This document shows positions 5,152-61,634 of a stretch of 63,641 bases of DNA, in pieces. The notes below the pieces were generated by a model. The model was given only the letters and a program-made list of their open reading frames with translations, was not told the DNA's origin and ran no database searches. The first letter of the stretch is position 1, and every line of letters begins with the position of its first letter. The position numbers were made by a program, and so were the translations under genes. This DNA comes from a virus (Duplodnaviria; Caudoviricetes), in the IMG/VR virus record IMGVR_UViG_3300015203_000009, positions 1 to 63,641 of that record. One strand, written 5' to 3'.

Positions 5152-5772
5152 ATGGAAGAAGACAAAATTTCAACGGCAGGAGATACGTGCGACGGAGGCG
5201 TACTCCATTCGCCAATTTCTACCTGTGGCGCGCCTCCCGCCGTTGTTTATCGTCGCGGAGACAAGCACCCCACAGAAGACAAAGTATTCTGGGAATACGC
5301 TCCTGCTGGGGAGCTTCGTTGGTCTAGTCGCCTAAAATACGAAGCCTATCGAGCAACGATAGTAAAACTACCCGGAACGTGGAAAAAGAGAAACCGAGCG
5401 AAGTGTCGTGCATCAGGCAAGCGCTGCTATTACAGGCACAGATTAAAAAGGCTAGCCGATAGGAGAGAATGGGCAAAACGAAATCCAGAGCGCATAAAGT
5501 TTTTAGCTCGCCGCCACATGAGAAAGTATCCGGAGAGATACGCTTTTCATGCAGCTAAAAGAAGGGCGACGATATTAAAAGCAACAGATGTCTCGACTTC
5601 AAAACTGCAGATTAAGGTTTTTTACGATGCTGCGGCCAGAGTATCTCGGTGTTTGGGTATAAAATTCCACGTTGACCACATCATTCCTCTATCTCGTGGA
5701 GGAAGGCATCAGCAATCAAATCTTCAGCTTTTACCAGCCACACTCAATCATCGCAAAGGCAACCGAATTTAA
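5152..5772 (+). CDS. HNH homing endonuclease
   Basis: FHVDHIIPLSRGGRH..SNLQLL....N..K; more AT-rich than flanks. Confidence 0.88.
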   Translation: MEEDKISTAGDTCDGGVLHSPISTCGAPPAVVYRRGDKHPTEDKVFWEYAPAGELRWSSRLKYEAYRATIVKLPGTWKKRNRAKCRASGKRCYYRHRLKRLADRREWAKRNPERIKFLARRHMRKYPERYAFHAAKRRATILKATDVSTSKLQIKVFYDAAARVSRCLGIKFHVDHIIPLSRGGRHQQSNLQLLPATLNHRKGNRI

Positions 5773-6956
5773 TGCCTGAATTAACTCACACTCAAACCCG
5801 CAGTCACCATAAAGATTCACCCTCAAGCCTTCAGGCAAGCGAGGCATGCCCTTGTTACCTTTCCGAACAAAGGGAAAGCGCTGCCTCTACTGCCGGTACA
5901 CTTCAACACACGGCTGTCGAAACTCGTGATTTGTCCATTCTCGGAGGAAACGAGGCAATGGAGACGGCCGTCTCGAAAGCAATAGCTTACGAGGAAGCCA
6001 TCCTCAATCGCCTCAAGCTCGCGCGCATCGACTATCGAATCATCCGCGAGGAAAAGCTCACCGTCGGCGACGATGACGTGACATCGGGTTTTCCTGACAC
6101 TGTAATTGTGGCTGGCACGCACGCCATCATTCTGGACTTCAAGTTTGGAAAAATCCCGGTGACGGATGCCAAGGACAACCTGCAGGGCATTTCCTATTGG
6201 CTCGGAGTGCTACGCAAGGAACCGAAAGTGGTGACGACCGAGGTGCATTTCATTCTCCCGTACCAAAACTGGAGCCCCGACGCGCAGCGTATCAAATTTA
6301 CGCATACGTTCCACAAGGACGACGCCACGAAGAACGAACTTAGGGTGAGGACTGTCATCGCCCGCAAACACGAGGCCTACGCGCAGGTGGAAAAGGGCAA
6401 CTGGGACATGGCCCAGCCCAAAGAGGACCTGTGCATCTGGTGCGAGCGAAAAGGCGTGTGCCCGAAGGTTGGACAGCTCGTCCTGCGCACCAACGAAAAA
6501 TACCACGACATGACGGTGCCCGACGTCGTGAAGGAGTGGAAAATAATCACGTCCGACCAAGTGGCGCAGGCGTACAAGTTTGCCAACCAGATGGGGCCAA
6601 TCATCGAGGCCATCAAGAAGCGCTGCGTCGAGGTGGCCGTGCAGGATGATTTGCTGCCGTCCAATTATAAAATTGTTAAATCCCAACACCGGAAAATAAA
6701 GAAAGTGGGTGGATTTTTAAGAGTGGCGCTGGATACGGCCAAGATGACCGCCGAGGAAGCCACGGAACTGCTGACGGTGAGTTTCAAGCCCTTCGAGGAC
6801 TGGATAAGATTGCATGCTCCCAAAGGTGCGGGGGCCGCTCGCCTGCGTGAATTCAATTCCGCCCTTGAGGAAAACGGCGTCGTCGAAGCCGGGACACCTT
6901 TCTATTTTCTGCGGGAAGTAAAAACTCCCGCCGATAAAATTGCCATAGATATTTAA
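5772..6956 (+). CDS. PD-(D/E)XK nuclease (Cas4-like/DUF2800-type exonuclease)
   Basis: SPSSL...CP, GTLQH, GFPD, ILDFKFG, NLQ..Y, CIWC....CP. Confidence 0.8.
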   Translation: MPELTHTQTRSHHKDSPSSLQASEACPCYLSEQRESAASTAGTLQHTAVETRDLSILGGNEAMETAVSKAIAYEEAILNRLKLARIDYRIIREEKLTVGDDDVTSGFPDTVIVAGTHAIILDFKFGKIPVTDAKDNLQGISYWLGVLRKEPKVVTTEVHFILPYQNWSPDAQRIKFTHTFHKDDATKNELRVRTVIARKHEAYAQVEKGNWDMAQPKEDLCIWCERKGVCPKVGQLVLRTNEKYHDMTVPDVVKEWKIITSDQVAQAYKFANQMGPIIEAIKKRCVEVAVQDDLLPSNYKIVKSQHRKIKKVGGFLRVALDTAKMTAEEATELLTVSFKPFEDWIRLHAPKGAGAARLREFNSALEENGVVEAGTPFYFLREVKTPADKIAIDI

Positions 6957-11910: not shown

Positions 11911-14133
11911 ATGCCGCTCTTTGCCCTCCGTAACCTGTCCTCGTCCGCCGTTGAGCCGTGCATGCCGTGGACCTACACCCAAGCCGCCCCCGACCATGTC
12001 AAAGGAAAAGAAAACAAGAAGGCGCGCGACAAATGGATCAATTGTCCGGAAACACAGAGCCAGTGTTATTCGGCGTTCGAAGGTGTTAACGCTGCGCTCC
12101 GTATCTCCGAGCCCAAGATTGGCGGAGAGGAAGGCAATCCTCCCCTCAAGCTGCACGCCTTCGTCGCGGACATTGACTGCCCTGTCTCCCAGCAGGAACT
12201 TGCGACCGGGATTGGTCGGCTTGATTTTAAACCCAACTACTACGAAATCACGCTCTCAGGGAATGCGCGGCTCGTCTGGCTCTTTGAAGCCCCCATTTCC
12301 TTTCCCAATCGTCGCTTTGCCGTAGAGTTTTTGAGACTAGCCCTTGGGCGATTGCACCCGGACCACGTGGCGGCGGGCTTCGACAAGCCGGCATGGGAAG
12401 AGCCAAACAGATATTACACCAACAGCGGCGAGTGGCTGCAAATAAGTGCTGAAGCACGAATTCCGAAGGAGCTGCTGGACGGCTGGGTGGTGGAGGTGGC
12501 GGAGAAGCACGTGTGGAGAAAAGACAAGGGAGCAATTGATCTTCCCCTCCCGGTCGTCGAGGCCGAGCTGCTGAAGAAGTGGTCCCAGATGAACTGGCCG
12601 GGTGACTTCGTGGAAGGCTCGCAGGGTCCGTCGTTCTGGCTGGAAGGCTCGACGTCGCCGAAAAGTGCTGTGGTGAAGCCCACGGGACTTTTCACCTTCT
12701 CCGCCCACCAATCGAAGCCGTTCTACAGTTGGTCCGACTTGCTTGGCAAGGATTTTGTCGAGAAGCACGCCGCCGAGCTGATGGGCAAGGCCGTCGAAAA
12801 CATTTATCACGACGGCAGCAAATACTATCGGACGGATGGACACGGCTCGTGGAAGAATTTCACAAAAGAAGACGTAGTTTTGCACCTCACCACCGACCGG
12901 GGACTCTCCGCTGTCAAGGACGGCGGGGCCTCCGAAATCAACCGAGCCCTCTGCTACATCCAGAATTGGCAGGGCATCGACGGCGCGGCCCCCTTTGTCT
13001 TCCAGCCCCCGGGCATCATCAAGAAGCAGGGTAGGACGTTCTTGAATACGCATACGCGGAAAGTGTTGAGGCCTTCCGATGAGAAAGCCGTCTGGGGGCC
13101 GAACGGAAATTTCCCCTTCATTTCCTCCCTGCTGGACGGTCTCTTCCATCCGGACAGCCTCCCCGCCAATCCCAAGGACTACCTGCTCGCGTGGCTCGCG
13201 CGTTTCTATCGCGGGGCCTACGAATTCAATCTGGAAAGCGGCCAGAGCCTTTTCTTCTTGGGCGCTCCCGGCATCGGCAAGACGTTTCTGTCGCAGGGCC
13301 TTTTTCCCCACCTGATGAGCGGCGGCACGGGCGCAGAGGCCTACCTGATGGGCGAGAGCGATTTCAACAGCGAGCTGTTCGAGACAGCCTTCTGGACGAT
13401 TGACGACAATTCCGCCACCGTCGACAACACCACACATCGCAAATTCTCGGCCATGGTGAAGAAAATGGCCGCCAACACTGTCTTCCAATACCATGCCAAG
13501 TTTCGCATTCCCTGTTCCGTCGACTGGCTGGGCCGGGTGTTCATCACCGCCAACGCTGACGAGCAATCTGCGCGCATCGTGCCCGATCTTTCCATCAACA
13601 TTCTCGATAAGATGCACATTTTCCGGGGCGCGGATAAGCCGGCGGTGGTGTTTCCAGACAAGCGCGGTTGCGAGGCTATCATCCGCAACGAGACGCCTTT
13701 TCTGGCGCGCTATCTCCTCGACTACGTGGCTCCGGCTTACGTCGTGGGCACCTCGCGCTTTGGCGTGAAGAGCTACCACGAGGTGTCGCTGATGAAGGTG
13801 GCCGAACAAAGTTCCGATACGGCCAGCTTCCGCGAGGTGATTGAGCACTGGCGCACGGTGTATTTCCAAGAGAAGCCCGATTTGAAATTCTGGCGGGGCT
13901 CGGCTTACGAGCTCCTGATGGAATTCCACAAGGATGCCTACGCCTCGGCGGCCGGCCTGCGCGGCCTCAATGCCGGCACGGTGGGGAGAAGCCTGATGGC
14001 GGTGAAGGCCAAGGGCATGCCCATCGAGGTGGTGGGAGGAGAAAGATTTCGCGAGTGGATAGTGTACAAGGATGACAAAATCCCAGCGGAGACACCCATT
14101 GTCTCCAAGGCCAATTCAACTTTCAGCAAATAA
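11911..14133 (+). CDS. Primase-helicase (N-terminal primase-like domain, C-terminal SF3/DUF5906-type ATPase)
   Basis: ADID and TLSGNARLVW; Walker A GAPGIGKT, FNSEL, WTIDD, FITAN; start reassigned to ATG 11911. Confidence 0.8.
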   Translation: MPLFALRNLSSSAVEPCMPWTYTQAAPDHVKGKENKKARDKWINCPETQSQCYSAFEGVNAALRISEPKIGGEEGNPPLKLHAFVADIDCPVSQQELATGIGRLDFKPNYYEITLSGNARLVWLFEAPISFPNRRFAVEFLRLALGRLHPDHVAAGFDKPAWEEPNRYYTNSGEWLQISAEARIPKELLDGWVVEVAEKHVWRKDKGAIDLPLPVVEAELLKKWSQMNWPGDFVEGSQGPSFWLEGSTSPKSAVVKPTGLFTFSAHQSKPFYSWSDLLGKDFVEKHAAELMGKAVENIYHDGSKYYRTDGHGSWKNFTKEDVVLHLTTDRGLSAVKDGGASEINRALCYIQNWQGIDGAAPFVFQPPGIIKKQGRTFLNTHTRKVLRPSDEKAVWGPNGNFPFISSLLDGLFHPDSLPANPKDYLLAWLARFYRGAYEFNLESGQSLFFLGAPGIGKTFLSQGLFPHLMSGGTGAEAYLMGESDFNSELFETAFWTIDDNSATVDNTTHRKFSAMVKKMAANTVFQYHAKFRIPCSVDWLGRVFITANADEQSARIVPDLSINILDKMHIFRGADKPAVVFPDKRGCEAIIRNETPFLARYLLDYVAPAYVVGTSRFGVKSYHEVSLMKVAEQSSDTASFREVIEHWRTVYFQEKPDLKFWRGSAYELLMEFHKDAYASAAGLRGLNAGTVGRSLMAVKAKGMPIEVVGGERFREWIVYKDDKIPAETPIVSKANSTFSK

Positions 14134-14939
14134 TGTACTACGGCACGTCAGAAAATCCGCCCGACCAAATTGTCTTCGCTCCCGGGGAAGAGAAAATCCT
14201 GTGGCGTGCCTATCGAAAAAGCGGGGACGTCGAGGCCCTGCGCAAACTCGTCCTGCGCTATCTGCCCTACGCCTTTTCCATTGCCAGCAAGTTCAAGGGG
14301 CCGCGCCTGTCTTTCGAAGATGCCACCTCGGCGGCCAACGCCGGACTCATGGAAGCCATTTCCACGTTCGTTCCGAGCAAGGGCAAGTTTATTGTGTATT
14401 GTTATTGGCCCATCCGCCGGCACACCTTGGAAGCACTCCTAGCAACATATCCGGTTAAATTGGGGTCTAGGATGAGAAAGAACATCCGCAAAAAAGACCT
14501 GTCGGGCAACAACAGCGACCTGAACGAGGCCTTTGCCCGCCTCGGCACCTACACCCCGCTGCAAAGTGGCGACACCTCCGTCGGCTATTCACAGGGCGCG
14601 GGCACTGTGGTGAAAGATAGCCAGAGCGTCGACCACGTGCATTGGAGCCCCGTCGTGCAGGCCTTGGGGCCGCAGCCGACGGCGGACGTCGAGGACTTTG
14701 CCCCCTCGCATGTCGAGGCCGTCGAGCGGGCGGATGAAGCCCTTGAAGTCCGACACTTTATAGAGACAGATGTGTTCACCGCGATTGAAAGGGCCGTCCT
14801 GAAAGCCCGCCATTATGTGGAGCCTCCCGAGGGGCTCGAACACTTGGCGAAAAGGTTGAATCAACCCAAACGAAAATTGTCCCTCGCCTACGACAGTGCG
14901 CTCCTCAAATTGAAGACACGATTTAATGCCCAAGGTTAA
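14133..14939 (+). CDS. Sigma-70-family factor (second copy)
   Basis: GDVEALRKLVLRYLPYAFSIASKF...FEDATSAANAGLMEAISTFVPSKGKFIVYCYWPIR; C-terminal region-4-like HTH. Confidence 0.82.
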   Translation: MYYGTSENPPDQIVFAPGEEKILWRAYRKSGDVEALRKLVLRYLPYAFSIASKFKGPRLSFEDATSAANAGLMEAISTFVPSKGKFIVYCYWPIRRHTLEALLATYPVKLGSRMRKNIRKKDLSGNNSDLNEAFARLGTYTPLQSGDTSVGYSQGAGTVVKDSQSVDHVHWSPVVQALGPQPTADVEDFAPSHVEAVERADEALEVRHFIETDVFTAIERAVLKARHYVEPPEGLEHLAKRLNQPKRKLSLAYDSALLKLKTRFNAQG

Positions 14940-44959: not shown

Positions 44960-45509
44960 GGTGAATACCTTTTAATTTTTCAGCTGCTTTTCTGTTTCTG
45001 GTAGCTTTCATTTTGTCTTTCGTAGCTTGTGAAACAACGTGGCCCATCAACGTAGCACTTCGCTTCGCTCGTGTTTCGGGTCTGGCATTACTTATTTTAG
45101 TTGCCTCCCGGTGATTATGTTTCCAACTTTCTGAGCGAACGATTGCCCTGTTTGCATCTCTTATTTTTATTTTAGCCTCTTCTGAATGCCTCATCCCAGT
45201 AGACCCTTCTCCTCCGTCGGTGTGATTGCAAAGATTGTATCCCCGCAGACGGTATTCTTTGATCCAATATTTCTCGGCTTCCATGGCGTTTTCAGAGGAA
45301 AAACACTTCTGAATCACCCGCATATCCGGACGAAGATTCTCTTTAAGCAAACTCAATATCCATTTTTGTGAGTGAGTTTTTGCTCTGTGTCGGCTGGAAT
45401 ACACGTGAGATTTCAAACGGTCCGCCGAAAAATCTGCTTTACCAACATACCTCACCTCATTGTTTCTCGGGTCAATAAGCTCATACACGCAGAATTCGGC
45501 TGTGTTCAT
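44952..45509 (-). CDS. GIY-YIG homing endonuclease with NUMOD3-like motif
   Basis: VYELIDPR..EVRYVGK...R...H; E..WI; N.TDGGEG..G..HSEE.K.KI. Confidence 0.9.
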   Translation of the reverse strand: MNTAEFCVYELIDPRNNEVRYVGKADFSADRLKSHVYSSRHRAKTHSQKWILSLLKENLRPDMRVIQKCFSSENAMEAEKYWIKEYRLRGYNLCNHTDGGEGSTGMRHSEEAKIKIRDANRAIVRSESWKHNHREATKISNARPETRAKRSATLMGHVVSQATKDKMKATRNRKAAEKLKGIHHA

Positions 45510-46420
45510 TTGCTGCGGCGGTCGTTGGGAGAATAAAAATAATCCTCGATGGTGTTGCGTAGGCCTTCCTGCAGTGTCGTTTTTGAAACGAATCCGAGTG
45601 CTTTAAGTTTCGAAACATCAAACGTCTTTTTTGGAATTCCCGTCGGCTGCGAAGCGTCCCACTCCACGCCGTATTCGAATTCCATGATGCTCACGAGCGC
45701 GTCCGCGAGCTCCTTGATGGAAGTGCCGACGCCCGTGCCGATGCTGATGAGGTCGGGGCTGTCGTATTTTTCCAACACAAGCTTGATAGCGTCAGCGGCG
45801 TCGTCGACATACATGAATTCTCTCACCGCAACTCCCGAACCCCACACGCGCAGGGGGATTTTATTCGCGTTGGCGTGGTCGAGGCGCGCGATGAGCGCGG
45901 GCACGACGTGCGCAGAAATTCCGTAATTATCGTTCGGCCCGTAAAGGTTGGCCGGAGCGCACGTCGTCCAATGATGTCCGTATTGCGAGCGATAGGCGCG
46001 GCAGAGAAAATATCCGGCAAGCTTCGCCGCCGCGTACGCCGCGACATCAGGCTCGAACGGCCCCGTCAGCAAACTTTCTTCCTTCACCGGCACCGAAGCC
46101 TCGCGCGGGAACAGGCACGACGTGGCCACATTCACCAACTTCTTCACTCCCACCGCATGCGCGGCCGCGAAGACGCTATTCTGAATCTCCAGATTTTGGG
46201 TGAGGAATTCCACGGGCTCATCGCGGTTGGCTTTCACTCCTCCAACTCGGGCGGCACAATTTATTACGAAATCCGGACGATGCTCCTCGAAAATATACTT
46301 GGTGTATTTCGCATCCCTAAGATCGCAGTTTGTCGTGACAATCTGATAGTCGTCCGAGCACTGGCGGATGACAGCGCGGCCGAGAAGTCCGCGATGGCCT
46401 GTAACAAGGAGCTTCATCAA
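45506..46420 (-). CDS. fcl: GDP-L-fucose synthase
   Basis: VTGHRGLLG, AARVGGVKAN, TSCLFP, YAAAK, NLYGPNDN, HVVPALI, WGSG..VREFMYVDD. Confidence 0.92.
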   Translation of the reverse strand: MMKLLVTGHRGLLGRAVIRQCSDDYQIVTTNCDLRDAKYTKYIFEEHRPDFVINCAARVGGVKANRDEPVEFLTQNLEIQNSVFAAAHAVGVKKLVNVATSCLFPREASVPVKEESLLTGPFEPDVAAYAAAKLAGYFLCRAYRSQYGHHWTTCAPANLYGPNDNYGISAHVVPALIARLDHANANKIPLRVWGSGVAVREFMYVDDAADAIKLVLEKYDSPDLISIGTGVGTSIKELADALVSIMEFEYGVEWDASQPTGIPKKTFDVSKLKALGFVSKTTLQEGLRNTIEDYFYSPNDRRSK

Positions 46421-51295: not shown

Positions 51296-52327
51296 TCACA
51301 CCCCGAACGGAAGAATGCTTGCGCCCGGGCCGGCTTCTTTTTGTGCCAGCGCGTAGTCGCTGTCCACCATCAGCTTTACCAACTCCTTAAATCTCACTTG
51401 TGGCTGCCAGCCCAGCTTGGCTTCTGCCTTGGCCGGGTTGCCAACTAACAAGTCCACCTCCGCCGGCCGCTCGTAGCGCTCGTCGTGCTTCACGTACTTG
51501 CGCCAATCCAGCGACACCCACTTGAAAGCTTCCTCGACAAATTCGCGGACGGTGTGCGTCTCGTTCGTGGCGACAACATAGTCGTCGGGCTTCTCCTGCT
51601 GCAGCATCAGCCACATCATCTCGACGTATTCCTTGGCATAGCCCCAATCGCGCTTGGCGTCTAGATTTCCGAGAGTGACACTGTCTTGTAAGCCGAGCTT
51701 AATTCTCGTAGCAGCGCGGGTGATTTTTCGGGTGACAAATGTTTCGCCCCGGCGTGGACTTTCGTGATTGAAGAGGATGCCGTTAGAAGCATGAAGTCCA
51801 TAGCTTTCTCGATAGTTAACGGTGAGCCAATACGCGTACACTTTCGCACACCCGTACGGAGAGCGAGGCCAAAAAGGTGTCTGCTCTGTCTGAGGAACCT
51901 GCTGCACCTCGCCAAACATCTCGCTGCTGGCTGCCTGATAATATCGAGCCGTTTTAGCCAAACCAGAATTTCGAATTGCTTCGAGCAGTCGTGCGGTGCC
52001 GAGCCCACACACATCCCCTGTGTACTCGGGGACGTCGAAGGAGACACGCACGTGGCTCTGGGCTCCGAGATTGTAGATTTCGTCCGGGGCGATTTTGTAC
52101 AATAGGTTGGTGAGGGCGCTGCCGTCGCAGAGGTCGCCAAAGTGGAGGAAAAAGGAAACATTGTTGATTGCTGGGTTGTTGACGAGGTGGTCGATGCGGC
52201 CCGTGTTGAAGCTCGACGAGCGGCGCAGGAGCCCGTGCACCTCGTAGCCTTTTGCAAGGAGGAAGTCGGCGAGATAGCTGCCGTCTTGGCCCGTGATGCC
52301 AGTGATAAATGCGACGCGTTTTTTCAT
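51296..52327 (-). CDS. gmd: GDP-mannose 4,6-dehydratase
   Basis: [62 protein letters not shown]. Confidence 0.97.
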
Positions 52328-55368: not shown

Positions 55369-55745
55369 TTGATTTTCGCTTTCCAGCGAATCAAGCAGGA
55401 ATATATCTGGGTGGCGAGGAAGCCACGAAGCAGAGCGGCCGTCTCGCCGCAGCCTTTTGGACCCCACTTGATTTCCCGATATTCGAAGACGTCATCAACA
55501 GCGTGGCTCATCTCGTGGGCAATCAACTCGTGGCTGAGACAGCGGCGTTCGAACATCATCAACCCCTTTCGTCCCCGAGAAATCCACACCCCCGCCGGGT
55601 CAAAATTCTCCGCCACCTCGAAATTGTAGTTCACGTGGGCGTGAAGCTCGCGCTCCTCCACCGTCGCCCGGATACTGTCGCAAAGACAGAGCCGGACGTC
55701 GAAGTCATAGATGGGAAGGGAGAAGTTGTGGAAGAAGGGTTTCAA
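55365..55745 (-). CDS. HExxH-motif protein
   Basis: LIAHEMSHA...E..A.L. Confidence 0.6.
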   Translation of the reverse strand: MKPFFHNFSLPIYDFDVRLCLCDSIRATVEERELHAHVNYNFEVAENFDPAGVWISRGRKGLMMFERRCLSHELIAHEMSHAVDDVFEYREIKWGPKGCGETAALLRGFLATQIYSCLIRWKAKIK

Positions 55746-55751
55746 GAAAAA

Positions 55752-55857
55752 TGGCGATGGGGGCAGGTGCTTGCACCCTGCGCTGCTGAGTCTGCTACCC
55801 GTCAGCCCGGGAACGGTTGCGACCCGTTGTCCGCTTTAATATCTAAGCTACCCCACC
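55752..55857 (-). ncRNA. Aberrant 106-nt tRNA-like RNA
   Basis: GGTGGGG/CCCCATC acceptor, G, CCA; D stem GCTT/AAGC; AACGG/CCGTT; GCTGA/TCAGC; GCAGG/CCTGC. Confidence 0.7.
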
Positions 55858-55865
55858 AAAAGAAG

Positions 55866-56171
55866 TGGACGCGAGGGAAGTCGAATCCCTGTGCTTCTCG
55901 CCTTCTTCGTCGCAGTCAACATGCTTGTAGGGATGCCGGATTTCTCTGACGTCCTCCACCATCCGGGAGCTGGCCCGGCCCATTATACTCTAACGCTGTC
56001 GCTAACAGCGGCCGTTAGGCCGCGAGCTTCATCTGCTCCGGGACCGTGGCCCGGAAATCCACTTCAATGACGTTGTCATTTGATTTTTTGCCACGGCAGA
56101 TTAAAGAGCCGCCATGACGGGCTCTGCATGCAGCGACGCGTTGTTCGAAAAGTAGAATCCAGAACGCGCCC
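55866..56171 (-). ncRNA. ssrA: tmRNA
   Basis: 5' GGGCGCG-TTCTGGATTCTAC; 3' AGGGA-TTCGACT-TCCCT-CGCGTCC-A; G3.U70 pair; tag frame ...NDNVIEVDFRATVPEQMKLAA-stop. Confidence 0.92.
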
Positions 56172-56189
56172 GAAAATTTGAAAGAACGA

Positions 56190-56510
56190 AAAATTGAGCC
56201 GGCGTCGCGAGACAGAATGCGACGCCGGGAGCGTCTGTTCCGCCCTGTCAATGGCCCTCAGGTCCGGCACGTACAAACAACAAGCGTGCCGGGAAATTCT
56301 CCCCTCGGGCTCAGCCCAAAATATTCGGGCAGCCGAGGGGAACGCAATGAAGGCACGTCTGCCAGCCGACCGAGACTACACTCTACTCGGATTCTGATGC
56401 CTCAGGTGTTTCTCGAAGGGAGTCGCTGAATAAGACAGCTTACACCATCGGTTGCGCTGTGCCACAGACCAAGGTCGGGGCGCGTGTGCGTCCCTTATTG
56501 CTGTCAGACA
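56190..56510 (-). ncRNA. Candidate unknown structured RNA
   Basis: Several GC-rich stems between tRNA and tmRNA; no convincing ORF; strand inferred from neighbours. Confidence 0.55.
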
Positions 56511-56514
56511 CAAT

Positions 56515-56589
56515 TGGGTGCGGGGGTCTGAATTGAACAGACGGCCTGAGCGTTATGAGCGCACTGCTCTACCACTGAGCTACCCCGCA
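56515..56589 (-). tRNA. tRNA with CAT anticodon (Met or Ile2)
   Basis: TGCGGGG-TA-GCTC-AGTGGTA-GAGC-A-GTGCG-CTCATAA-CGCTC-AGGCC-GTCTG-TTCAATT-CAGAC-CCCCGCA-C-CCA. Confidence 0.9.
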
Positions 56590-56621
56590 TAATTTTCAAA
56601 AGAACTAAAATCTGAACCACC

Positions 56622-56649
56622 ACCCTAGCACACCAATTCGTTTTGGCGA
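56622..56649 (-). promoter_or_regulatory. Class A promoter TCGCCA-N16-TAGGGT driving the RNA cluster
   Basis: Same motif and spacing, with TGn extension; 32 nt upstream of the tRNA. Confidence 0.7.
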
Positions 56650-56659
56650 GGAAAATCTT

Positions 56660-56860
56660 TCAGTGCTTGTGAAAAAAGTCGTCGAGCTCCCTTTGCTCAA
56701 TGATTTTGTCCACAGCCAAAGCGGTGTGCACGACGACAGATTCCATGGCCCGGCGCTCCTGCCAATAATTGTTCCACGCCCACGCGAGGAAGATGAAAAT
56801 GAAAATGTTTCTGGCCTGACGGATTCGACGTTTTCTAAAGTGGAAGGAGAAAGTTCTCAC
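56660..56860 (-). CDS. Small membrane protein
   Basis: GTG start 6 nt after the class B motif (56867-56877); basic stretch then TM segment. Confidence 0.5.
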   Translation of the reverse strand: MRTFSFHFRKRRIRQARNIFIFIFLAWAWNNYWQERRAMESVVVHTALAVDKIIEQRELDDFFHKH

Positions 56861-56886: not shown

Positions 56887-58767
56887 TCACCCGAGGTATT
56901 CGTTCCGGTCGGTGCAGCCGACGCGCTGCTCGTAGGGCGTGTTGTCGTCGTCTCCTTTCGAGACAGTGCCCGTGATCGTTGGCACTTCCGTCATACGCAT
57001 GCGGGCGACAAATACCAGTATTGTTACAGCGTCCGCGCGGTCGGGAGATTTGTTGCCTCGGCTTTTGTAATCCTTCTTGCTCTCCACTTTCTTCTTCGCG
57101 CCCGCGTGCGGATATTGCCGACCCGTGAGCTCGGCAATCAGCGGGTCTTGAGGGATGGCGGGGTTGATTTTTAGAAACCCGAATTCAATAAACTTGCTCG
57201 TGCCAAACCAGAGCTCGGTGAGCAAATTTTGATATTCGTCGGCGGGGAGTTTCTGGTCCTCGTCCATGATCTTTTTTTCTGTCGGAGACATGGAGCCGTT
57301 GATGCCCTTGGTCGCGTTGGAGAAAGTGGTGACGAGGACGTCGTGCACGCCCGCCCCGTTGCCCGCGCGGTCGACGCCCAAGCTCTGGCCCTTCACGTAC
57401 GTCCCCTTGGAGAGACGGACAATCTCGGCGACCAGTTTTAACGTGTCGCCTTTCGGCATCTGGAAAAGCTGGTCGAGCTGCAGCACTTCCCGTAGGACGG
57501 GGTGGCCGAATTGATTTTTAAAACTTTCGAGCGGGCTTTGCTTGCCGTCGATTGGGGGACGACGCCAGCCGGACGCTTTCCCCAGTCTGCCTAGGGCATA
57601 GATGGCATTGTCGCCGCCTTCGAGCGCGACGTCGACAGCGCCAATTGGTTCGGGCGTCTCGACAAATTCGTAGGTGCCGTAGACGTCATTCACGAGATGC
57701 TGCGGGATGACGACGAGGTCGAGGCCCTGCTCCGGGTACCATCCTCTTGCAAACGTATAGTACCCGGCTGTGCCTACGCCACCGGCATTCTTGATGGATA
57801 TTTCCAACCCACCTTTCGTCTGCAGGCCTTGATAAAGCGTCTGACCGCTCATCACGTTCTCGCTCTTGTAGGCATCAAGTCGCACCACACTCCAGTCGCG
57901 TTTGCTCACCCACGTCTCCGATGTCTCCATGTCGATGCTCTGCCATCCGTTCTTCGGCTCGACGCGTTGAGCGCATGCACTATTTCTGTCCTTTGGGTTG
58001 AAGGCAGCAAAAATCTTGAATTGTTCCAGCCCACTTGCGTTGGAAAGGATATTCACCGTGTCATCCCAAATACCGATGGGGATGTTCTCGGCTTCTTCCA
58101 AGAAAACGCGGAGACGAGAAAGTTTTCCAAATTGTGGATGCGGGTGCTTCCTCGGAATCACCTTCACGCCCTGTAGCCGTCCGGCGGCCTTCTTACCTGT
58201 CGGCACCACCAGACCAAAAATGCCGCTGTCCCGCTGCACCGCACTGAGAGTGATTCCAAGTTGGATGAGCTCGCCGGGGCCGGAAATACTGGCCTCTCGA
58301 TGAAGCTTCGCTAAGTGCGAAAAGAGATTGCGTTCAAGGTGGCCTTCAGATGGGCCGACGATTTGGATATTGGTGTAAAACGGGTCGCGTCTCCAATCAA
58401 GATAACTCCACACGCCGAGAGAATATGACTTACTCATCGAGCTGGCTCCTTGCACCGCCACGGCCACGGAAGAAAATACAGCGTCCCAAATCATCTTCAC
58501 TTGCCGGGGTTCGCCCGAAAAAAGATTGGGCGTCCACAGCAGCGTGGCTGCATCAACGTATCGCTGGCCGTCCAGCAAATATTGCAGGAAAGCCGCGAGA
58601 ATCTGGTTGGCTTGCTCCTCGTTTTTTATTGCAGTGTCGATCTGGAGGAATTCGGCCACTTGCTGCGCGGCTGTCACTCGGTTGCCTAGGTGCAGGGGCA
58701 AGGACACCGCCTTGGTGAAATCGGTGAGCTTTCCGCCGTGAACTAAACCTACGGGTGTTTCATCCAT
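56887..58767 (-). CDS. terL: Terminase large subunit
   Basis: Deviant Walker A GASSMSKS; Walker B VFLEEAE; FNP; nuclease GAVDVA..G.D, VD..G.GAGV.D, ESK...SPDRADA. Confidence 0.88.
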   Translation of the reverse strand: MDETPVGLVHGGKLTDFTKAVSLPLHLGNRVTAAQQVAEFLQIDTAIKNEEQANQILAAFLQYLLDGQRYVDAATLLWTPNLFSGEPRQVKMIWDAVFSSVAVAVQGASSMSKSYSLGVWSYLDWRRDPFYTNIQIVGPSEGHLERNLFSHLAKLHREASISGPGELIQLGITLSAVQRDSGIFGLVVPTGKKAAGRLQGVKVIPRKHPHPQFGKLSRLRVFLEEAENIPIGIWDDTVNILSNASGLEQFKIFAAFNPKDRNSACAQRVEPKNGWQSIDMETSETWVSKRDWSVVRLDAYKSENVMSGQTLYQGLQTKGGLEISIKNAGGVGTAGYYTFARGWYPEQGLDLVVIPQHLVNDVYGTYEFVETPEPIGAVDVALEGGDNAIYALGRLGKASGWRRPPIDGKQSPLESFKNQFGHPVLREVLQLDQLFQMPKGDTLKLVAEIVRLSKGTYVKGQSLGVDRAGNGAGVHDVLVTTFSNATKGINGSMSPTEKKIMDEDQKLPADEYQNLLTELWFGTSKFIEFGFLKINPAIPQDPLIAELTGRQYPHAGAKKKVESKKDYKSRGNKSPDRADAVTILVFVARMRMTEVPTITGTVSKGDDDNTPYEQRVGCTDRNEYLG

Positions 58768-60516: not shown

Positions 60517-61066
60517 CTGCTACTCGTGCTGTCGTATCAATCACGGGGCTGGCATCGAAACGCTTCTGCAGTGCTTGGTACACGTTCACGATGAGGTTGG
60601 TGGTGTTTTTTGCGCCTGTGCTCACGTCTGCGTCGGCCGCAAGCTTGTCACCAAGCGCACGGTATTTGATGTCTGCCAGCGTTTGAATTCCCTTGGCCAA
60701 CTCAGTGAGAGCCTTGGGGTCGAACGTCGCAATGCCATCCTTGTCGGTGGTCACACAAAAAGAGCGTGCGGCGGCGGGGTCTTTTTCAAGGTCAGCGATG
60801 ATGTTGTCGAACACGGCACCGAGTCGCGTGGCCAGTGTGTAGTTGGAAATTCGATTCACTTCCTTTTCCATCTCGCGGCCTTCGTCGGTGTCAAGACGCG
60901 CCAAGCCATTGGCCTTGTCCTTCCAGTTGTTGTCGTGCGCGAGCGAGTCGATTCGTTCCTTCGGCACACGAGACACGGCCGCGACGCGCGCTGTGTTGCC
61001 ACCGAAAAACGTGAAGAGTTGAAAAAGCTGAACGTGGTCCTCGCGGACGACAAGAGTAGTAGACAT
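60491..61066 (-). CDS. Putative terminase small subunit
   Basis: First late gene; N-terminal HTH-like segment ending in W; class B variant at 61082-61092; start reassigned. Confidence 0.55.
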   Translation of the reverse strand: MSTTLVVREDHVQLFQLFTFFGGNTARVAAVSRVPKERIDSLAHDNNWKDKANGLARLDTDEGREMEKEVNRISNYTLATRLGAVFDNIIADLEKDPAAARSFCVTTDKDGIATFDPKALTELAKGIQTLADIKYRALGDKLAADADVSTGAKNTTNLIVNVYQALQKRFDASPVIDTTARVADAVRPSSN

Positions 61067-61283: not shown

Positions 61284-61634
61284 TGTAGCGGACGGTAGGA
61301 TTTACCGTGTGTTTAAATTCTACCGTCCGCTACACGTTCTCTCTCCTCCTCCTGCTCTACTCTTCAACTACTTATATATTATTAGATGTAATATAAAAGG
61401 ATTGGTGAGAAGGGAATTAGGTTGGGCGAGCTGGGGAAAAAGGCACTTGTGTCATAAAGCGGCGGCCGAAAAGGCCGTCCCGCCTAAGACTCGCCAACCT
61501 AATTCCCTTCTCACAACAACTCTCCGTGTCTACAACAGTTCACGTATGTGCCTGATAGCTAACGCATCAATTTGTCCGATTGTTGTGCCACGCTACAGTA
61601 TTTAAACACACGGTAAATCCTACCGTCCGCTACA
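61284..61634. repeat. 35-bp perfect inverted repeat (61284-61318 / 61600-61634) plus nested hairpin
   Basis: TGTAGCGGACGGTAGGATTTACCGTGTGTTTAAAT and its reverse complement; third partial copy at 61320-61334. Confidence 0.92.

Follow-up and report, generated by a model that had tools for sequence, protein, structure and literature searches.

A hairpin-rich insertion in the spacer between the tRNA-Met and tmRNA genes of a phage

The tRNA-Met–tmRNA region

The window, by which we mean the whole stretch of DNA that was analysed, is an entire IMG/VR virus record, linear, 63,641 bp long and estimated to be 89% complete. The block on the + strand encodes a helicase, a PD-(D/E)XK nuclease, a protein with a weak match to family A polymerases and a protein with a sigma-70 region 2 domain (14133-14939, + strand, E 5e-10). 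The latter is a candidate for the recognition of promoters specific to the phage, among them perhaps those of the RNA array. The long block on the minus strand consists mostly of proteins without assignment and contains the spacer that is described here. Two genes for NAD-dependent sugar epimerases/dehydratases were seen in the structural block (45506-46420 and 51296-52327, minus strand). The longest perfect hairpin of the record, with a 15-bp stem and a 21-nt loop, is located at 61284-61334, in a region where windows at 61055 and 61398 also rank among the most stable of the 343-nt folds.

The stretch with the tRNA-Met, the spacer and the tmRNA lies just downstream of a conserved gene at 56887-58767 that codes for a protein of 626 amino acids, and about 370 bp separate this gene from the spacer. 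The protein had no match in Pfam or PHROG and may be the large terminase; it was used solely as a marker for related phages. Among 8000 scored candidates, 418 were homologues at E<=0.001, many of them on contigs of ~70 kb. Some of the homologues are ~950-990 residues long (P0037, P0048, P0053, P0084 and P0113) and one long homologue has a Hint/homing-endonuclease domain (PF05203), which suggests that inteins occur in this family.

The tRNA-Met gene with the anticodon CAT and an encoded CCA was found at 56515-56589 on the minus strand by ARAGORN and by Rfam (RF00005, 63.8 bits). The one-piece tmRNA gene at 55863-56171, on the same strand, was missed by ARAGORN and clearly detected by Rfam over the full model 1-374 (RF00023, 67.7 bits with a gathering score of 47, E 3e-24). 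The open frame through the mRNA-like part of the tmRNA ends with ...VPEQMKLAA-stop, and the third acceptor pair is a G-U pair by eye. Between the two genes lies a spacer of 343 nt (56172-56514, minus strand), which confirms the order of tRNA, structured segment and tmRNA described in an earlier sequence-only reading of this DNA.

A candidate tRNA-like RNA was noticed directly after the tmRNA at 55750-55857 (minus strand). The minimum free energy (MFE) structure is a cloverleaf in which GCCA follows an acceptor stem of 7 bp. It also has a D arm, an anticodon loop of 7 nt (CGC) and a long extra arm, and its T loop is atypical. The z score of this fold is only -1.77 and 7/200 shuffles were equally stable. 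The segment was called neither by ARAGORN nor by Rfam and had no homologue in 226 loci.

Both RNA genes are preceded by a short leader motif. Copy 1, TTAGTTCTTT, is located at 56599-56608 (minus strand), ~10 nt 5' of the tRNA-Met, and was found by a pattern scan and as the direct repeat D1 with 56181-56200. Copy 2, TTTCGTTCTTTCAAATTTT, occupies 56173-56191 (minus strand) directly 5' of the tmRNA and was found by the pattern scan, by blastn and in the alignment A3 of related loci. The pattern TTNGTTCTTT had 4 matches in the window where 0.62 were expected, and 0/100 shuffles reached 4. In its general form, the motif reads (T-run)-C-GTTCTTT followed by 6-10 A/T-rich nt. In the related loci L003 (positions 4598, 4787 and 5140) and L006 (5653-6751) it precedes every module of the RNA array, i.e. 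tRNAs, tmRNA and unassigned segments, and it was also located in L164-L210. A scan of IMG/VR for GTTCTTT, 6-10 nt and a generic tmRNA 5' end detected 47 contigs of 1.4 to 218 kb, and the motif together with a tmRNA start was found in 0/401 bacterial genomes sampled from one phylum. In many A/T-rich contigs, a sigma-70-like promoter of the form TTGACA-17-TAnnnT ends, by eye, 6-9 nt before GTTCTTT, and the leader motif would be the start of the primary transcript in these contigs; it may also serve as a processing signal or as a site for a protein. The leader motif before phage tmRNA and tRNA genes is the more general lead from this analysis.

Stems, folding and reading frames of the spacer

All the stems listed in the sequence-only reading were found again in + strand coordinates by the hairpin scan, the repeat search or direct reading. 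Read along the minus strand, the 3'-terminal hairpin (56199-56228) has a perfect, G+C-rich stem of 10 bp (56199-56208/56219-56228; repeat I3) and a loop of 10 nt; it is followed by CUCAA and then by the U-rich leader motif. The hairpin at 56264-56292 has a perfect 8-bp stem (56264-56271/56285-56292; repeat I9) and a 13-nt loop. The long hairpin at 56300-56341 has a perfect outer stem of 9 bp (56300-56308/56333-56341; repeat I7) and an inner GCCC/GGGC stem, which reaches 7 bp on the minus strand by means of a G-U pair. These three appeared in the predicted minus-strand fold and in the hairpin scan as well, whereas the nested 5-bp stems 56370-374/56386-390 inside 56351-355/56398-402 were read directly in the sequence. 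The 6-mers CAGAAT/ATTCTG and GTCTGT/ACAGAC that had been noted as long-range complements are present, the former as part of the 10-nt, 90% inverted pair I5, but complementarity of this kind is at chance level. In addition, the MFE and the centroid structures both contain a predicted 5' multibranch domain (56357-56509, minus strand) that is closed by GUCUG.CAGC / GCUG.CAGAC. It recurs inside the fold of a 741-nt precursor, in which tRNA-Met, spacer and tmRNA form separate modules, and has no comparative support.

The spacer is hairpin-rich beyond chance. Three of the 30 perfect hairpins of the window (stem >=8, loop 3-25) fall inside its 0.54% of the length, and this is the highest hairpin density in the record, as 0/186 bins of 343 nt contain three. 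The minus strand folded with an MFE of -137.9 kcal/mol (z -3.38) and the plus strand with one of -136.0 kcal/mol (z -3.98), and on either strand 0/100 dinucleotide shuffles were as stable. Compared with the phage's own background after GC regression, 7/185 non-overlapping 343-nt windows folded at least as well (z -1.86), so the folding signal is weaker against the phage's own sequence than against shuffles. The three strong stems are perfect Watson-Crick palindromes that are alike on both strands. Such strand-symmetric stems fit a young insertion or DNA-level palindromes better than long-evolved RNA helices. As a guide to the strand, the G-U pairs were ambiguous, since one hairpin has 2 more pairs on the + strand and another has 3 more on the minus strand.

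A known RNA family was rejected for the spacer. At gathering scores, the 4227 models of Rfam 15 detected only the tmRNA and tRNAs in the window. At E<=10 over 55700-56800, the matches inside the spacer were msiK with 14.7 bits (gathering 33), Esr41 with 14.5 bits (102) and mir-1814 with 14.3 bits (90). The models include RNase P, SRP, 6S, group I and II introns, GOLLD, ROOL, HEARO and YrlA. The absence of RNase P, SRP and group I hallmarks noted before thus agrees with the Rfam result, which extends to families of any kind.

An intact or decayed coding gene was rejected as well. The longest stop-to-stop frame of the spacer comprises 103 residues and is Arg-rich, as are its ORFs. The two longest + strand ORFs contained 0 Pfam families. 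The 83-aa ORF on this strand shared no words with 5.8 billion proteins and is not among the called proteins of the window, and 15 six-frame segments compared with 226 loci gave a best E of only 0.042. The sequence-only reading had named coding selection on an overlapping ORF as an observation that would speak against a noncoding RNA, and no ORF of the spacer had coding support.

These results also bear on the idea that the segment acts at the DNA level, as a packaging site, an origin or a recombination site, or that it hides a small protein gene. The palindromes are strand-symmetric, the 83-aa frame is open and the possible terminase gene is close by. On the other hand, only short two-copy repeats and no iterons were found, the Arg-rich ORFs have neither a homologue nor a called protein, and relatives with the same gene order do without the segment. 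We therefore regard a DNA-level or coding role as highly improbable.

The spacer in related phages

Related loci were fetched with the marker-protein alignment A1 (21 homologues). They comprised 80 viral loci from 117 confirmed relatives (best identity 68%), 80 metagenome loci from 101 confirmed relatives (best 65%) and 2 genome loci (best 59%). A tRNA-Met(CAT) was present within the fetched flanks of 28/80 viral loci, and a tmRNA was also present in 4/16 loci scanned with Rfam. A homologue of the spacer was found in none of 243 fetched loci and in no GenBank phage, plasmid or any of 401 bacterial genomes. With nhmmer, no match at E<=10 was obtained in 160 marker-protein loci, in 47 loci with the leader motif and a tmRNA or in another 17 tRNA-Met loci, and with blastn nothing beyond the leader motif, the tRNA and chance-level similarity was matched in these sets. 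The insert is also missing from the complete records behind L162, L163, L002, L003 and L171. The 15 GenBank phage records that matched did so in the tRNA part only. In the 401 genomes, which belong to the class of a Nitrosomonadaceae MAG with a related phage contig, 4 had short matches of 22-39 nt at chance level (E 0.0035-0.01). The covariance model R1, built from the 5' 160 nt and their predicted structure, scored 202 bits on itself and otherwise nothing below E 1.8 in 1.47 Mb from 200 sources. The homologue search in viral metagenomes that the sequence-only reading had proposed thus came out negative. The relatives compared share 49-68% marker-protein identity, with the homologues P0002-P0008 (72-85%) outside the comparison, and at this distance an unconstrained RNA would fail to align anyway.

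The spacer is single-copy in the phage record. In the search of sequencing runs, no RNA run was listed as containing it, and only one soil run, which may be the source, did. From the reads of 3 runs, one contig was obtained that spans the spacer (depth 19, no variants); otherwise these contained unrelated tRNA fragments.

What distinguishes the phage from its relatives became clear in the alignment A3. In L003, L172, L189 and L171 the two RNA genes are only ~20 nt apart in the compact arrangement tRNA-Met...CCAA-TTT(T)CGTTCTTT-N9-tmRNA. In the window, a contiguous block of ~321 nt stands between tRNA-...CCAA and TTTTCGTTCTTT-N9-tmRNA, with the conserved tRNA end and the leader on either side. 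It appears in 4/4 relatives as a single gap (columns 53-373, ~321) and corresponds to 56193-56513 (minus strand). The compact junction was seen in at least 3 distinct contig types, one of 120 kb, and is by parsimony the ancestral state. The pentanucleotide CAATT is present at both ends of the insert, at the left junction (56512-56516, minus strand), where it overlaps the terminal CA of the tRNA, and at the right junction (56192-56196, minus strand), where the repeat D2 starts with AATTG at 56192. Because of these two copies, the boundaries are ambiguous by 5 nt.

The insert does not fill the whole spacer. When the 160 loci were searched with blastn, only positions 322-342 of the spacer, i.e. 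the last 20-21 nt, were matched in L003 (twice) and L082, besides one chance-level match of 30 nt. These positions, to which the matches to 56172-56514 in L003 and L082 are confined, are copy 2 of the leader motif. As the motif is kept in relatives that lack the insert, it is separate from the insert and belongs to the tmRNA unit. The interval described as one element in the sequence-only reading thus combines the insert proper (~56193-56513) with the leader motif of the tmRNA (56173-56191), which makes up its 3' 20 nt.

Other sequences have entered the same junction. In L194/L197, the CCAA of the tRNA-Met is followed by an unrelated, hairpin-bearing insert of ~83 nt with TGTTTAA...TTAAACA ends (by eye). 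In L006, ~1 kb extra is found at 5742-6765, made up of 4 motif-led modules, 2 of which contain the T-arm-like GGTTCGA(T/G)(T/C)CC. Neither the L194/L197 nor the L006 inserts had an Rfam match at E<=1. Three independent inserts have thus been seen at one tRNA-Met/tmRNA junction. The other spacers 3' of a tRNA-Met measure ~100 nt (L084 and L009), ~190 nt (L006) and ~280 nt (L002); they are structured and could not be aligned to the insert. L002, with 68% the closest relative fetched, has no tmRNA. Structured noncoding segments of ~520 nt (5385-5908) and ~280 nt (5983-6260) flank its tRNA-Met, and they had only sub-threshold Rfam matches (YrlA, 19.2 bits with a gathering score of 69).

The clean insertion with CAATT at both junctions, as in the target-site duplication of a MITE, raises the question of a non-autonomous mobile element that was moved in trans by a host transposase. 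Two variants were considered, a MITE-like element that duplicated 5 bp of its target and a palindrome-associated derivative of IS200/IS605, which would insert 3' of a CAATT-like target and end in that pentanucleotide. PATEs derived from IS200/IS605 have subterminal hairpins at both ends and no inverted repeats and insert 3' of a fixed target of 4-5 nt. The outer hairpins of the insert, which lie ~20 nt in from its left end and ~7 nt in from its right end, would by eye fit a PATE/IS608-like geometry, though they are dissimilar to each other. The second, unrelated small insert at the same A/T-rich site in L194/L197 also points in this direction. Like MITEs and PATEs, the insert is small, noncoding, hairpin-rich and cleanly inserted with a short junction repeat. 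It differs from them in having no terminal inverted repeats by eye, as the ends GTGTCTGAC... and ...GACGCCGGCT are non-complementary, in being single-copy with none in any of the collections searched, and in the lack of a transposase in the phage, where Y1 transposase (PF01797) and TnpB (PF07282) had 0 matches in the window. An exact scan of IMG/VR for the right-end terminal hairpin gave 9 contigs, which all carry unrelated G+C-rich hairpins and do not match the insert. A non-autonomous mobile element of this kind is therefore unlikely. The best reading is that of an orphan insertion, specific to this lineage, into a spacer in which inserts are tolerated. Its main value now is as an example of a phage tRNA-tmRNA spacer that takes up foreign sequence.

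Transcription, release and possible roles

We give about even weight to the reading that the insert is a passenger of mobile-element or recombinational origin, which would be released with RNA processing and has no demonstrated function of its own. A block of ~320 nt would have entered the very short, A/T-rich spacer of an ancestral tRNA-Met–tmRNA unit in a soil phage of ~64-70 kb. With only ~20 nt between the genes of the relatives, there is no space for a promoter that would serve the tmRNA separately, and both genes are presumably co-transcribed there. Expression of the tmRNA would then rely on minus-strand transcription through the insert, unless the insert brought a promoter with it. A scan for sigma-70 promoters found none in or near the spacer, but it is uninformative because none was seen upstream of the tRNA-Met either. 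The insert is probably transcribed together with both RNA genes and excised when they are processed. The 3' maturation of the tRNA and the RNase P cut at the 5' end of the tmRNA would free it together with the leader as an RNA of ~320-340 nt; the 10-bp G+C hairpin close to its 3' end could hinder exonucleases and so lend it some stability. Inserts would be tolerated in the spacer since whatever it contains is removed by processing. At most, such a neutral passenger may reduce read-through into the tmRNA.

Several observations weigh against a mere passenger. No other part of the record is as hairpin-dense, the folding energy lies beyond 100 shuffles on both strands, and a selected RNA would show the same. 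The RNA arrays of related phages have other, unassigned structured segments, each ending with a hairpin, 5-6 nt and the leader motif, so the locus may collect functional RNA cargo. The insert is complementary to the 5' end of the tmRNA. In addition, the relatives that lack it were compared at the marker identities given above, 49-68%.

The complementarity is also what a cis-acting regulator of the tmRNA could use, either by attenuation at the hairpin and leader or by complementary segments that delay maturation by RNase P. Two segments of the insert, 56478-56485 and 56319-56330, are complements of the leader and acceptor strand at the tmRNA 5' end, over 8 nt perfectly and over 12 nt with 11/12 matches. 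ACGCGCCC is complementary to GGGCGCGU of the tmRNA 5' end, and the partner of GCCCGAAUAUUU comprises the leader and the first tmRNA bases (inverted repeats I8 and I1). The duplex energy of -38.2 compares with -30.6 +/- 3.1 for shuffles, of which 5/300 were as good, but with p ~0.02 this is one of three pairing tests. Pairing with the tRNA-Met or the whole tmRNA was rejected as no better than in shuffles (208/300 and 161/300). In the precursor, the MFE and the centroid structures both form the acceptor stem of the tmRNA normally and leave the insert self-paired.

For attenuation, UUUUUCGUUCUUUC follows 5 nt after the 10-bp G+C hairpin. Intrinsic terminators were defined by a G+C-rich stem, a loop of 3-8 nt and a U-tract within 0-2 nt. 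The hairpin at 56199-56228 has a loop of 10 nt and a U-run 5 nt past the stem, and the terminator scan of the window, which gave 5 sites, did not call it; this number of sites does not exceed that of shuffles (3.4 +/- 1.7). The U-tract is offset from the stem and part of the ancestral leader, and the relatives manage without the insert. A cis-regulator of the tmRNA is therefore quite improbable. Very little weight is likewise given to a new phage regulatory RNA that arose when the block entered the tRNA-Met/tmRNA precursor and that, attached or released, uses its segments 56478-56485 and 56319-56330 to pair with the 5' end of the tmRNA and gate its maturation by RNase P. If it were true, this gating would time the entry of the phage tmRNA, with the tag ...KLAA, into trans-translation. 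To our knowledge, the regulation of phage-encoded tmRNA is unexplored.

The sequence-only reading itself proposed a stand-alone noncoding RNA freed by the tRNA-processing enzymes, which would have been acquired as cargo of the array. The same-strand position between two RNA genes whose maturation would free the insert holds, and so do the record-high hairpin density and the z scores of -3.4 and -4.0 against shuffles. The terminal hairpin with 5 nt and the leader is the layout that ends other modules in L003, L006, L082 and L084. Evidence for a discrete RNA did not follow from the searches, as no homologue and hence no covariation was found, no RNA run contained the insert and it is absent from 4/4 aligned relatives with the same flanking genes and tRNA-Met/tmRNA pair. 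Against the phage background it ranks only 7th of 185 in stability, its stems are perfect palindromes and, unlike the other array modules, it lacks its own leader motif. We consider a stand-alone RNA possible but doubtful. If the insert were a selected RNA, it would join, as an unclassified member, the few phage RNAs that rely on tRNA processing for their release, and a module of this kind would be linked to a phage-encoded tmRNA.

The passenger and the stand-alone RNA can both be compared with known phage RNAs. GOLLD and ROOL, large ornate RNAs of phages and prophages, are described as lying near phage tRNA islands, with one GOLLD (env-38) downstream of a Met-tRNA and many GOLLD members longer than 800 nt (PMC12286853). 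The insert shares with them that it is noncoding, highly structured and phage-encoded beside tRNA genes; the likeness to large tRNA-adjacent phage RNAs drawn before stands for the location and does not go further. GOLLD and ROOL are conserved families with covariation and a multi-pseudoknot architecture common to many members, whereas the spacer is an orphan of 320-343 nt that had no match to either among the 4227 Rfam models even at E<=10.

A parallel for the proposed release is the tRNA cluster of phage T4. There, the small stable RNAs species 1 and 2 (rnaC/rnaD) are co-transcribed with the tRNAs and freed by tRNA processing, the same route that is suggested here by analogy. In T4, the RNAs in question have a smaller size and their stability was seen directly, whereas the insert is known as a DNA sequence. 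The spacers of bacterial tRNA and rRNA operons offer a second comparison. They also lie between two genes for stable RNAs, are removed during maturation and are free to vary in length and content, and the tRNA-Met 3' spacers of the related phages likewise measure 0, ~100, ~190, ~280 and 320 nt. The difference is that the insert described here came as one block with a 5-nt junction repeat and is far more hairpin-dense than the rest of the genome.
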